DNA of 64,000 nucleotides. It comes from Callorhinchus milii. Lineage: Eukaryota. Below the pieces are notes generated by a model. It did not search any database. It was given only the letters and a program-made list of their open reading frames with translations, and was not told where the DNA came from. The DNA lies in contig NW_024704743.1 in the NCBI RefSeq assembly GCF_018977255.1, positions 5,830,001-5,894,000 of the forward strand. The letters run 5' to 3'. Shown piece after piece: positions 5,568-60,030 of the stretch (the stretch's first letter is position 1; each line of letters starts with the position of its first letter). The position numbers and the translations under genes were made by a program.

Positions 5568-5898
5568 TGGAGTCCTGTAGCTCAGTGGTTAGAGCACTCG
5601 CTTTGCAAGCGAGAGACCTGAGTTCAATTCCAGGCAGAGGGCGAAACCTTGGGCAAGTTTCCTTACTCCAGACAGAGCCTAATAATAATCCCTCCAAAAC
5701 CAAAAACAATAATAAATTGGTCATTTTCAATCTACGACTGTTTGTGGGACATTGCTGTGCGCAATTGGCTGTCACGTTCACCCACAATTATACAGTCAAT
5801 TCACTTTACAGTGTGTTCTGTGAAGCGCTTTGGGACGTCCTCCCGACGTGAAAAGCACTATATCAAATGCAAGGATTATTATTTTATTATTATTATTA
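5568..5898 (+). mobile_element. tRNA-Ala-like SINE, short young subfamily
   Basis: Box A TAGCTCAGTGG, anticodon arm CTCGC-TTTGCAA-GCGAG, box B GAGTTCAATTCC, L2-like tail ending (TTA)n. Confidence 0.92.
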
Positions 5899-16835: not shown

Positions 16836-17457
16836 GTAATGTATTAATTAGCAAAGCTGCAAAGGAGGAATATTAGGAGCAAGTCTTTTTTTTAACACAG
16901 AAAGTTTTTAGGAATGGAATACCCTGTTTTGTGGGGCGGTCAAAGCAGAACCAATATTAACTTCAAAGAAGAACTAGATAGATATGTAAAATGATTCATT
17001 TGTGTTAAATGGGACTGAATGGATTTCTCTTTCAAAGACACAGTACAGACCTGAATGGCTTTTTTTCTGTGCTGTAACTTACTATGGGTAATTTACTCTT
17101 ATTTAAGTAAGGTTTGTTCTCATATCTTTTAAAAACTATTTCCACTAGATTAGATTGACTACCTTGTTCTGTTTTTCTGATCTACTCTTAAGTATTATTC
17201 ACAGTTTATACTTCCTGTACTTTGAGTTCAAGATCCTCATTTTAACATTCATACCCCTCCAGAGCCTCACCCCACCCGACCTCTGTAACCTCCTACAACC
17301 TCAGCGATCCGGCTGTTCCTAACCAGTTTATCTCTAGAACCTAGAGATATTCTAGTCTTTTGTCAAACTATAACTTGTCCCTAATTTTAACATTGCTCCT
17401 GCATCGCCTTAACTCATTTCCCAGCTGGACAGCGTTAGACACACAAAGCCATGAAGC

Positions 17458-17590
17458 TTTGAGTTCTGACGAAGGGTCATAGACCCGAAACGTTGACTCA
17501 CTTTCCTTTCTCCGTAGATGCTGCCTGACCTGTTTCCAGCAACTTCTGTTTTTGTTTCTGTTTTTGTTCCAGCATCTGCAGCATTTTGCA
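17458..17590 (+). mobile_element. Penelope-like element terminal-repeat remnant
   Basis: Hammerhead followed by ctcc(g/a)tagatgctgcctgacctg...ccagcaacttctg, shared with 57522-57628. Confidence 0.6.
17461..17499 (+). ncRNA. Minimal type I hammerhead ribozyme motif (Penelope-like element type)
   Basis: GAGTT-CTGACGA-A-GGGTC-ATA-GACCC-GAAAC-GTT-GACTC: intact core, 5-bp helix I, 5-bp helix II, palindromic AACGTT helix III. Confidence 0.75.
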
Positions 17591-19262: not shown

Positions 19263-19331
19263 GACTGGGATCTTCTCACCGCTTCTGCTGGCACTTTCTG
19301 GGTAGATAAGGCACTGGGCTGAACTTTCAAG
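19263..19331 (+). other. APBB1IP: Probable non-coding 5'UTR exon of APBB1IP
   Basis: Pyrimidine-rich tract ending ttttatttacag|, consensus donor AAG|gtgagt, non-repetitive, no ATG, in-frame TGA; the ATG exon starts right after an acceptor so an upstream exon must exist. Confidence 0.6.
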
Positions 19332-21164
19332 GTGAGTGCTCCGTCCATTTGTTTTACTTGCTTGAGATTTTCAGCCTAGTTGGATAATCTTAAGAGCTGA
19401 ATGACAACTTGTAGAATCACGGGGATTTCAACAAATTCAGCCTTACCTTGCCTGTACCATGCTGGCTTGGCCCACTGTAGCTATAAACTCTAATTCTGCA
19501 TCGCTGATCTTTTCTCTTAGAGTTTTGTAGCATCAGTCTTTAAGTGTTTATCAGAGTCCCTTTTAAATGTTACAATTGACTGAGATTCTACTTGTGGTGG
19601 CACTACTTGGCCCTCAATAACCCCCATATTGCTTCATGTCCCCAACCCCTCACCCCACCCAATCAGCCGTGGACGAGCTTTCGTCCATGCTGCCCTCGCT
19701 TTCTGGAACTTCATCACAGAATCCCTCCACCTCATCCTCTCCTTCCCCACCTTTAAAGCCCCTCCCCCCCCACCCTCCTACTTATGATCTTTTTGTTTCA
19801 ACCGTGCTTTTTGTTCACGTGGCTCCCCCTCCCTCCTCTGCCAACCATTCCCCCCCACCCCACTCCCACCCCACTTCCTCAGCTCCCACCACCTTCCTTG
19901 GTTCCTCCTCAGGCTCTCGGTTGGCACTGTGAAGTGCTTGAGATAGCCTTCTGGCGTGAAAGGCACGAGATAAAATTAAAATTGTCGTTGTTGTTCTATT
20001 CTCTTCTTTATTGTTCTCGTAATAGTTCTGTTTCCTCATGGGCACAGCGTGGGCACTATCTGGGTTCCGGTTTCCCAGTCAGGGAGGATTGATAGCTATT
20101 AAGATTGAAAGCCTTTCCTGGATCCCAGATTTCAGGAGCATAAACTTCTCCATAAAGGAACTGGGATCATTGTCTTCGCAAAACTCAGAGTATTGTGGAA
20201 TATGTGATAACGCGCTAAACGGAAGGATTATTATTATTATTTTTATAGCTTCTCACTATACTTGGAGAATGCAGGACAGGAGGATGATAACTTTCATTTC
20301 AAAGCTCTGTGTTGATGGTAGGGGAGTGTTGCATTCTTTACATAACGGGTGAAGGGATGTGAGAATGGGAAATAGACCACATCAAAAAGCCATGGATACA
20401 GAGTTAATAAGATATTTGAGAGAGAGATCAATACTTGGTAAGTAAGCATCTTGCAGAATAAGGCGAAAAAGTGGAGGAATTGAATTAAAGGCTTACTATA
20501 GATTTTATGGTGGAGCAGGCTGACATCCGAATGGTCTACTTCTAAATACAATGTACCTGGTTCTTGGTGAGTTCATATCTGGATTACTGGCTGTAGTTTC
20601 AGTCTCAACCTTACATTTATGTATAGGGCATTTCATGTTTGACAACTTGCCATGGTGGGTGAAAGGTGAAGAGAGTGAAGAGGGCATGTGGCCCTTTGGA
20701 TTGATAAATTCGGTTGTTAGAAAGAGTGGAGCAAAGAGCTACTAGATTAATTCCAGAATTTAGGTGATAAGTACTGTTAGACGTCATTTTACATAAAAGA
20801 TCTATATAAATGCAAGTGGCCACCATAGGACTTTCTGCTCTTGAAAGGAGAATTGCCTGAGAGGTTTAAATTATGAAGGTAAGTTTTTTGGACTTGTAGA
20901 AAATTCTAAAAACCAAAGGTCCCACTTACAGAATAAGGTTAACAAAAGCAAATAGGAAGTGCAGGAAAATATGTTTTCCTATGAAAAGGTAATGAGCAAA
21001 TTAGGAATTGGCACAGATTGTGGAAGAAGGAACTATAAGGGGTTTGAAAAAGGAACCAGGCAGGTTCCAGGAAATTAAAAGGATTCAGGGTTGTTAGATC
21101 TTGAAATAGACTTTTCAAAGGAATCCTTTCAGTTCTTTGAAAATTATTTCAGAATGTCAAAACG

Positions 21165-22945: not shown

Positions 22946-23029
22946 ATGGAGTCCGGAGGGGGAAATCCCACCGATGACATAGATGCCATGTTCAGTGATC
23001 TCTTAGGGGAGATGGACTTGCTGACACAG
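22946..23029 (+). CDS. APBB1IP: APBB1IP/RIAM coding exon 1 (MESGGGNPTDDIDAMFSDLLGEMDLLTQ; talin-binding site 1)
   Basis: tacag|ATG acceptor, CAG|gttagt donor; translation matches RIAM N-terminus (human IDQMFSTLLGEMDLLTQ). Confidence 0.95.
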
Positions 23030-30856: not shown

Positions 30857-31177
30857 TGGAGTCCTGTAGCTCAGTGGTTAGAGCACTCGCTTTGCAAGCG
30901 AGAGACCTGAGTTCAATTCCAGGCAGAGGGCGAAACCTTGGGCAAGTTTCCTTACTCCACACAGAGCCTAATAATAATCCCTCCAAAACCAAAAACAATA
31001 ATAAATTGGTCATTTTCAATCTACGACTGTTTGTGGGACATTGCTGTGCGCAATTGGCTGCCACGTTCGCCCACAAATATACAGTCAATTCACTTTACAG
31101 TGTGTTCTGTGAAGCGCTTTGGGACGTCCTCCCGACGTGAAAAGCGCTATATCAAATGCAAGGATTATTATTATTAT
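30857..31177 (+). mobile_element. tRNA-Ala-like SINE, short young subfamily (near-identical to 5568-5898)
   Basis: Direct comparison: about 6 substitutions over ~430 bp including shared upstream flank. Confidence 0.92.
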
Positions 31178-33879: not shown

Positions 33880-34257
33880 TGTCCTGTAGCTTAATGGTTA
33901 GAACACTCGCCTCGCAAGCGAGAGGACCTGGGTTCGATTCCCATGTGGGGCGAAACATTGGGCAAATTTCCTTACTCTACTCACACGCCTGTTTACCTAG
34001 CAGTTTGTAGGAACCCAGTTGTTAGTGAATTAGAAGTTCACTTTTCCGGGGGTATTAATCCCTTCAAAAAAATGTTTACAAAAATAATTATTTGGTCACT
34101 CAATCCACAACTGTTTGTGGGACGCCGCTGTGTGCAACTGGCTGCTGCGTTTCACCCACAAAAATACAGTCAATTGACTTTACAGTATTTTCGGTGAAGC
34201 GCTTTCAAGTCTCAAAGACATAAGATAAGGTTCTTTAACAAAAGCAAAGATTATTAC
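33880..34257 (+). mobile_element. tRNA-Ala-like SINE, long form, abutting an L2 (TTG)n tail
   Basis: gtcctgtagcttaatggttagaacactcgcctcgcaagcgag..ggttcgattcc; CORE-like middle; tail. Confidence 0.88.
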
Positions 34258-43937: not shown

Positions 43938-44318
43938 GTAGTAATAATAATCCTTGCATTTGATATAGCGCCTTGTCACATCTTCTAATCGTCTCAAAGC
44001 ACTTCAAAAAAAGTACACTGTAAAGTGAATTGACTCTATATTTGTGGGCAAAACACAGCAGCCAATTGCGCACAGCAGTGTCCCACAAACAGTCATAGAT
44101 TGAAGTGACCAATTTATTATTATTATTTTTTTTGAAGGAATTATTACCCTGGAAAAGCAATCCACCAATCGACTAACAACCGCGTTCCTACTTACTGCGA
44201 GATAAACAGAGGCATGTGAATTAAGGAAACTTGCCCAATATTTCACGCTGCCAAGAATTGAACCCAGGTCTCTCGCTTGCGAGGCGAGAGCTCTAACCAG
44301 TGAGCTACAGGACTCCAC
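43938..44318 (-). mobile_element. tRNA-Ala-like SINE, long form
   Basis: Full head-to-tail homology with other copies. Confidence 0.9.
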
Positions 44319-57521: not shown

Positions 57522-57628
57522 GTGTAAATACAGAAGTTGCTGGGAACACATAGCAGGTCAGGCAGCATCTATGGAGAGAGGGAAATGAGTTAACGTTTCA
57601 GTTCAATGACTTTTCATCAGAACTCAAA
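57522..57628 (-). mobile_element. Penelope-like element terminal-repeat remnant
   Basis: Reverse-complement homolog of 17458-17590. Confidence 0.6.
57587..57625 (-). ncRNA. Degenerate second copy of the minimal hammerhead motif
   Basis: Minus strand GAGTT-CTGATGA-A-AAGTC-ATT-GAACT-GAAAC-GTT-AACTC; core intact, two mismatches in helix II. Confidence 0.6.
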
Positions 57629-59647: not shown

Positions 59648-60030
59648 ATGGAGTCCTGTAGCCCAGTGGTTAGAGCACTCGCCTCGCAAGCGAGAGATCT
59701 GGGTTTGATTTCCCGGGAGAGGGCAAAAACGTTGGGCAAGTTTCCTTACTCCATGCGCTTCTGTTTACCGAGCATTAAGTAGGAACCTGGTTGCTAGTCG
59801 ATTGGCGGATCGCTTTTCTGGGGTAATGATCCCTTCAAAAAAGAAAAGAAATGGATCGCTCAATCCACGACTGTTTGTGGGACACTGCTGTGCGCAATTG
59901 GCTGCCGTGTTTCGCCCACAAAATATACAGTCAATTCACTTTGCAGTATATAGTGGGAAACGCTTTGAGATGTCTAGAACACATGATAAGGTGCTACATC
60001 AAATGTAAGGATTATTATTATTATTATATC
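59648..60030 (+). mobile_element. tRNA-Ala-like SINE, long form
   Basis: tggagtcctgtagcccagtggttagagcactcgcctcgcaagcgag...ggattattattattat. Confidence 0.9.

Follow-up and report, generated by a model that had tools for sequence, protein, structure and literature searches.

A minimal hammerhead ribozyme motif upstream of APBB1IP in Callorhinchus milii is very probably a passenger left by a Penelope-like retrotransposon

The window analyzed here, a 64-kb stretch of the Callorhinchus milii genome, carries a hammerhead motif in sense orientation upstream of the coding exons of a plus-strand gene, as had been predicted from the letters of the sequence, and protein comparisons identify this gene as APBB1IP (RA exon matched to RIAM structures at E 3e-23, and to RAPH1 at 3e-15). 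The segment 22946-23029, which we take to be the first coding exon, was assigned by eye from an N-terminal motif, and because a splice acceptor directly precedes its ATG, an upstream non-coding APBB1IP exon is implied. Two exon-like segments with both acceptor and donor lie in unique DNA on the + strand (19263-19331, 69 nt, and 20249-20437) and are candidates for APBB1IP non-coding exons. When the sequence was searched for a promoter, the sole strong CpG-rich stretch upstream proved to be the coding region of another gene, and a literature search on the APBB1IP promoter returned nothing usable.

Several further features surround the locus. About 30 kb before the window, the GC-rich coding exons of a minus-strand gene (L036:6834-9531, or G000:C2 about 5,796,800-5,799,500) encode a coiled-coil-like stretch and two TNFR cysteine-rich repeats (PF00020, E 2e-7 and 5e-6), and some 450 further residues of this gene had no Pfam match. 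It is placed between APBB1IP and the exons of a pyridoxal-dependent decarboxylase gene (G000:C2:5,765,053-5,767,482, + strand), the latter ~63 kb before the window; a decarboxylase upstream of APBB1IP presumably corresponds to the GAD2-APBB1IP order of other vertebrates. Five tRNA-like Rfam matches within the window (5575-5637, 30864-30926, 33881-33951, 44243-44314, and 59659-59716) were rejected as tRNA genes, their repeated downstream sequence marking them instead as heads of an abundant tRNA-derived SINE.

The hammerhead sequence quoted in the original prediction is present, letter for letter, at 17461-17499 of the + strand (features in Table 1). Its catalytic core is complete (CUGACGA at 17466-17472, GAAA at 17487-17490), helix II has 5 bp (GGGUC/GACCC, 17474-17478 with 17482-17486) and a 3-nt loop, and the palindrome AACGUU (17489-17494) supplies a GUU triplet and leaves helix III without an intramolecular form, all as described beforehand. 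For helix I, the proposed pairing (GAGTT/GACTC) held, and the helix can be one pair longer than the proposed 5 bp (6 bp, 17460-17465 with 17495-17500). Four of these pairs (17462-17465) derive from a repeated element, and T17460 and G17461 are junction bases at which the element family has C; within the motif, the window copy differs from the family majority at two positions only, both in loop II. Positions 15.2-16.2 are palindromic (CG within ACGU). By its sequence, the motif at 17461-17499 is a real and intact minimal type I hammerhead. A chance look-alike sitting inside a repeat, with no ribozyme history, is extremely unlikely: it could draw on the Rfam search, in which no hammerhead model reached the gathering threshold or an E-value of 10 or below, but a hammerhead descriptor search gave a single match in the 64-kb window and at least one match in just 2 of 300 dinucleotide-type shuffles, and every feature listed for the minimal hammerheads of Penelope-like elements (PLEs) in the available text of PMC4209133 is present. 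The same look-alike is further opposed by the covariation and by the neighboring reading frame described below.

Table 1. Features at the hammerhead locus, in window coordinates
Feature	Position	Strand	Remarks
5' junction	17449..17461	+	TTG directly before +1
Minimal type I hammerhead	17460..17500	+	Up to 6 bp in helix I and 5 bp in helix II, helix III lacking within one molecule; predicted cut after U17494
Short copy of PLE end	17462..17590	+	129 bp; from first base of helix I (+1) through a ~30-nt tail
Core C3-A9 (CUGACGA) plus extra A17473 between 9 and 10.1	17466..17473	+	From sequence; the feature is described in PMC4209133 (available part)
Helix II	17474..17486	+	Closing pair G10.1-C11.1 (G17474-C17486), 3-nt loop
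G12-A15.1, palindrome ACGU (17490-17493), GUU triplet	17487..17494	+	Two molecules could pair through ACGU as a 4-bp helix III
Probable first coding exon of APBB1IP	22946..23029	+	5.45 kb downstream of the motif; splice acceptor directly before ATG
Second copy, other subfamily	57526..57624	-	Antisense to APBB1IP; helix II broken, decayed

The motif forms the first 37 nt of the repeat copy at 17462-17590, which we number from the first A of helix I (+1), with +34 as the first base after the cut. Relative to the family majority, this copy has one deletion of 7 bp, one insertion of 4 bp, and about 8 substitutions over ~130 nt and is about 6-7% diverged apart from its intact core; the 13 nt in front of it possibly derive from an inverted arm that has since decayed (10/13 nt match, by eye), and no target-site duplication was seen by eye. 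The motif is part of a dispersed repeat, a point that the original prediction had missed, with 430 exact intact-core copies genome-wide on both strands alike (225/205) and none in a reversed control, while a 26-mer just downstream has 3,798 exact genomic copies. Two side features of the repeat concern its coding and splicing signals: the family majority has an ATG behind the hammerhead from about +56, in a frame without stop through the tail (by eye), and the element's ORF may begin there, by analogy with the Anolis element, and at the repeat end of the window copy a T-rich tract plus CAG (17544-17573, + strand) has the sequence of a cryptic sense splice acceptor.

Upstream of the motif, longer copies continue as a pyrimidine-rich 3'UTR and, beyond it, the end of an ORF. 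A protein search with this ORF end yielded 150 scored matches, and among the 28 distinct insertions examined from these, 22 carry a complete same-strand hammerhead behind the GIY-YIG ORF end, at a distance of ~210-620 nt, one has a partial motif, and five have none. The endonuclease domain (PF01541) scored above the Pfam cut-off in one of three fragments and weakly in the other two, and a PDB search with an endonuclease fragment gave nothing significant. A C-x4-C-x2-C motif precedes the endonuclease in the translations of loci L050, L056, L057, L066, and L067, and a CX2-5CxxC linker in this place is a feature of Neptune/Nematis PLEs (PMC8557442). Reverse-transcriptase-like motifs were recognized by eye at locus L067, Pfam returned no match on the reverse-transcriptase fragments, and the loci examined contain broken copies only, with no intact full-length element among them. 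An immunoglobulin or T-cell-receptor V-like frame lies close to one PLE copy (L052:2719-3288, - strand). The attribution of the motif to the PLE-type minimal hammerheads is thus borne out by the GIY-YIG link in 22/28 insertions, and, taken jointly with the passenger reading developed below, it is very probable that the source element is an endonuclease-bearing PLE with a Neptune-like linker.

Insertion marks were read from the first 100 of the 3,798 26-mer matches, all on contig C1 and not fully independent of one another, since some are inverted partners and one is a duplicate pair. In this set, an inverted partner lies no more than 300 nt upstream of 56/100 copies, and the 3' ends fall into two clusters 30-35 nt apart (+95 to +109 in 43/100 and +130 to +144 in 44/100); inverted 5' partners and dual 3' ends are both PLE insertion marks (PMC8557442, PMC11167929). 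Four copies (L275, L284, L299, and L300) have lost the same ~13 nt separating the GAC of helix II from that of helix I; short direct repeats flank this recurrent deletion, whose end coincides with the cleavage site.

Sequence decay was followed in 52 gap-free aligned copies, 5/57 having been left out for indels or low identity. The core is kept in 24/52 copies, and the core together with helix II, palindrome, and helix I in 8/52. Damage is greatest at the CpG guanines G8 and G12 (changed in 20/104 cells), and the remaining, non-CpG core positions changed as often as flanking non-core positions (20/468 vs 22/468, p 0.87). The covariation among copies that the original prediction had named as a check was found, with 15 cells altered on both sides, 13 of them at one pair, and none of 500 shuffles reaching as high. 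Two subfamilies account for this pattern, with G-C replaced by A-U at pair 10.1-11.1 (13/53 rows; association p 1e-4) and U-G by U-A in helix I, and the covariation at 10.1-11.1 is one subfamily-level event and not many. That the signal depends almost wholly on one pair is a second point in favor of the chance look-alike, against which stand the both-sided change in 13/53 rows, the 88.7% of cells that are paired compared with at most 49.9% in slid controls, and the position of the motif behind the GIY-YIG ORF. Because the family majority is a perfect hammerhead motif and the subfamilies differ by a compensatory pair, the ribozyme structure appears to be under selection in the master elements. 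Inserted copies, by contrast, seem to decay neutrally, with no sign of selection on their cores. Since 8/52 copies remain intact, the intactness of the window copy needs no selection; it is roughly a 15% event, which is unremarkable, yet not proof of neutrality.

The copies share a sharp 5' boundary at helix I. In the 100-copy set, 34 begin between -1 and +5, with a peak at +2 (13 copies), so that the start rate within this interval is 12.5% per base, tenfold the 1.2% found both upstream and downstream. Exact genome-wide counts agree in placing the break here, with 823 copies having a base other than A at +1, 510 other than C at -1, and 362 other than C at -2, as compared with 770 that have three Cs; the flank was unrelated in 25 of 30 copies examined among the 510. 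The base before +1 is G in 273/510, where 27% is expected, while G before +2 shows no such excess (32 of the first 100 rows, by eye, vs 30% expected). TT precedes this G in 93/273 copies, and the resulting TTG directly before +1, with 93 exact copies family-wide, is found at both window copies (17458-17462 and 57624-57628). The TG of TTG pairs with a conserved CA after helix I, extending the helix from 4 to 6 bp; TTG could come from a cap plus an AT-rich target or from a fold-back of 1-2 nt. In three of 28 G copies, a duplication of 6-9 nt stops exactly one base short of +1, that base being the G; in one, the duplication includes the G, and most are without a clear duplication. Of 22 longer copies, 20 carry a TATA-like box at positions -27 to -30. 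For L1 and SVA, an untemplated 5' G has been read as a copied cap (PMC4859970).

By comparison, starts at the cleavage site, as expected of copies made from cleaved RNA, are not enriched. None of the 100 copies begins at +34, and genome-wide, 51 matches have a base other than T before +34; among 30 of these examined, 16 proved to be substitutions, and about six of the 14 that were flagged are internal deletions or variants by eye. The remaining +34 starts amount, as a rough estimate, to ~1.4% of at least ~1,290 copies, about the same as the background of 1.2%.

On the simplest reading, these boundaries suggest an element RNA that begins at +1 and is copied, without prior cleavage, from internal priming sites. 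A fuller version, which we offer tentatively and with slightly less than even confidence, is that the PLE family makes a capped RNA from +1, driven by two signals within its own 3' end, a TATA-like box at -29 and the initiator-like sequence CCAGTT, that short copies such as the window copy are complete cDNAs of its first 105-135 nt, that the extra G is reverse-transcribed cap, and that the ribozyme cuts off a 33-nt capped leader. Were this so, the ribozyme would act as a switch removing RNA from the pool that transposes and is translated cap-dependently, and thousands of short copies would not be random truncations. Against a start at +1 stands the peak at +2, and junction microhomology with the inverted arm, a rival account of the boundary, explains some copies (4/28 G copies end in TCAG). 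The boundary might instead be a 3' splice site, composed of branch point, pyrimidine tract, and CAG acceptor; the intron of Drosophila Penelope ends at helix I (PMC4209133), with transcription starting 46 nt ahead of it (PMC2377424). In the copies examined here, no shared upstream exon was found. For the recovered parts of the element, a short first exon was rejected as the source of TTGAG: 30 examined of the 93 TTG copies share no upstream sequence, and neither TTGAG nor a TTGAG-GT donor occurs in the last 650 coding nt or the 3'UTR majority of the recovered element. A literature search on Penelope-like elements, pLTR, hammerhead, and transcription start, thin and not proof of absence, found no description of an RNA start at helix I, and what PLE hammerheads do is called unclear in the available text of PMC8557442. 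For specialists on retroelements, the copy boundaries could be of interest as a testable map, with a proposed RNA start at helix I and no copies from cleaved RNA.

The 5' boundary also bears on another possible origin, in which the motif is the monomer of a retrozyme (non-LTR) or SINE-like family propagated by small circular RNAs that two tandem hammerheads generate. Most copies are indeed short and non-coding with a common sharp 5' boundary, and animal retrozymes derive from PLE ends (bioRxiv 10.64898/2026.07.22.740005). However, direct tandem copies occur in just 2/100, the window locus has no tandem array, copies do not start at the cleavage site (2/100 at +32 to +35 and about background genome-wide), and the short copies run on into the PLE 3'UTR and ORF in longer copies, leaving an origin as a retrozyme very improbable.

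Would the motif cut if it were transcribed? The predicted monomer fold (-15.3 kcal/mol) pairs G5-G8 with the CGUU stretch and so buries the core, while the open hammerhead (-12.7 kcal/mol) makes up a predicted 0.5% of the ensemble. A double hammerhead of two molecules is predicted at -23.5 kcal/mol, compared with -30.6 kcal/mol for two misfolded monomers, and is thus 7 kcal/mol less stable, on nearest-neighbor energies that omit the hammerhead core and Mg2+. The triplet GUU is cleaved more slowly than GUC, and the 64-kb window holds no same-strand or tandem partner of the motif. Published minimal hammerheads do not cleave as monomers and do so weakly as dimers (PMC4209133, PMC6765202), and the hammerhead of the Anolis PLE cuts only with the element's protein, with no RNA-seq reads ending at the cut site according to the available part of PMC11167929. 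Because a second copy and probably the element's protein are needed, we would expect the motif to cut little or not at all in a host pre-mRNA.

These considerations weigh on the original prediction's idea that the copy lies in a 5'UTR intron of APBB1IP and is cut in trans by RNA from another copy or an active element; in the form considered here, pairing through the palindrome and helix I would lead to cleavage that lowers or reroutes APBB1IP mRNA. Several points speak for it: the motif is sense to APBB1IP, the acceptor before the ATG implies an upstream non-coding exon, the exon-like segment 19263-19331 would itself require an exon further upstream, potential partner copies number in the hundreds in the genome, and helix I of the window copy reaches 6 bp. 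Other points speak against it. The cores show no sign of selection, the predicted dimer energy is unfavorable, the triplet is a slow one, and transcription of APBB1IP may begin downstream of 17.6 kb; published minimal hammerheads are weak even as covalent dimers (PMC4209133), and the Anolis PLE is inactive without protein and, in the text available, leaves no RNA-seq ends at its cut site (PMC11167929). The proposed role in cutting APBB1IP pre-mRNA by pairing with another RNA, lacking core selection, a same-strand partner in the window, and a favorable dimer, is thus unsupported, and intronic trans cleavage with an effect on the mRNA is, taken jointly, even less likely than the retrozyme.

We conclude that the motif is very probably a passenger, the hammerhead of a PLE left in a neutral solo insertion and not a device of APBB1IP. 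In the mechanism that we propose, reverse transcription of the element's RNA would have been primed internally, at either of two sites (~105 or 135 nt from its 5' end), and would have proceeded as far as the first base of helix I; the product would be the solo insertion of 129 bp that lies 5.5 kb ahead of the APBB1IP start codon. Ribozyme function would be kept up in the master element, as the family and subfamily sequences indirectly indicate, whereas the inserted copy, judging from the decay statistics, would be neutral DNA whose core has not yet mutated. Two observations run against the passenger reading, namely that the core is intact despite the divergence elsewhere in the copy and that the junction lengthens helix I to 6 bp. 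For APBB1IP, the hammerhead relic is most likely of no consequence.

Among known systems, the closest are the minimal hammerheads in the pseudo-LTRs of metazoan PLEs (Cervera and de la Pena 2014, PMC4209133; Lunse et al. 2017 as cited in PMC6765202), which are alike in the core boxes, the extra nucleotide after A9, and G10.1-C11.1, and also in the palindromic 15.2-16.2, short helix I, absence of helix III, and occurrence as mostly solitary copies from truncated elements with some inverted pairs (PMC4209133). Differences are that helix II has 5 bp here vs 7-8 bp in Schistosoma families (PMC4209133) and that one subfamily here has A-U at 10.1-11.1 in place of G10.1-C11.1. The motif thus has, in its letters, the characters of a PLE minimal hammerhead, a class known since 2014. 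Cartilaginous fishes are not named in the available main text of PMC4209133, and a literature search for hammerheads described from any named species of cartilaginous fish gave no paper; PLEs are reported from every vertebrate sampled (PMC4350176). Neptune/Nematis PLEs (PMC8557442) are alike in the C-terminal GIY-YIG, the C-x4-C-x2-C linker, a hammerhead near the 3' end, inverted 5' partners, and a 30-40-nt tail, and the element here is known from broken copies only.

The Anolis carolinensis Poseidon element PAc (Frangieh et al. 2024, PMC11167929) is alike in having two internal reverse-transcription starts downstream of the hammerhead, two 3' ends, and uncleaved RNA as template; it belongs to another clade, and the available text reports no pile-up of 5' ends at helix I. 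The domesticated intronic hammerheads of amniotes, in RECK and other genes (PMC6155905), are likewise type I, sense to the host gene, and near or in an intron, but they are canonical and conserved at orthologous sites, whereas the motif here is minimal, still inside a repeat, and without sign of selection; assignment to that group was rejected, as the motif has no canonical helix III folding in a monomer. Finally, non-LTR retrozymes (bioRxiv 10.64898/2026.07.22.740005) resemble the window copy as short non-coding PLE-derived repeats with a type I hammerhead, but they are defined by head-to-tail units, whereas the window locus carries a single copy.
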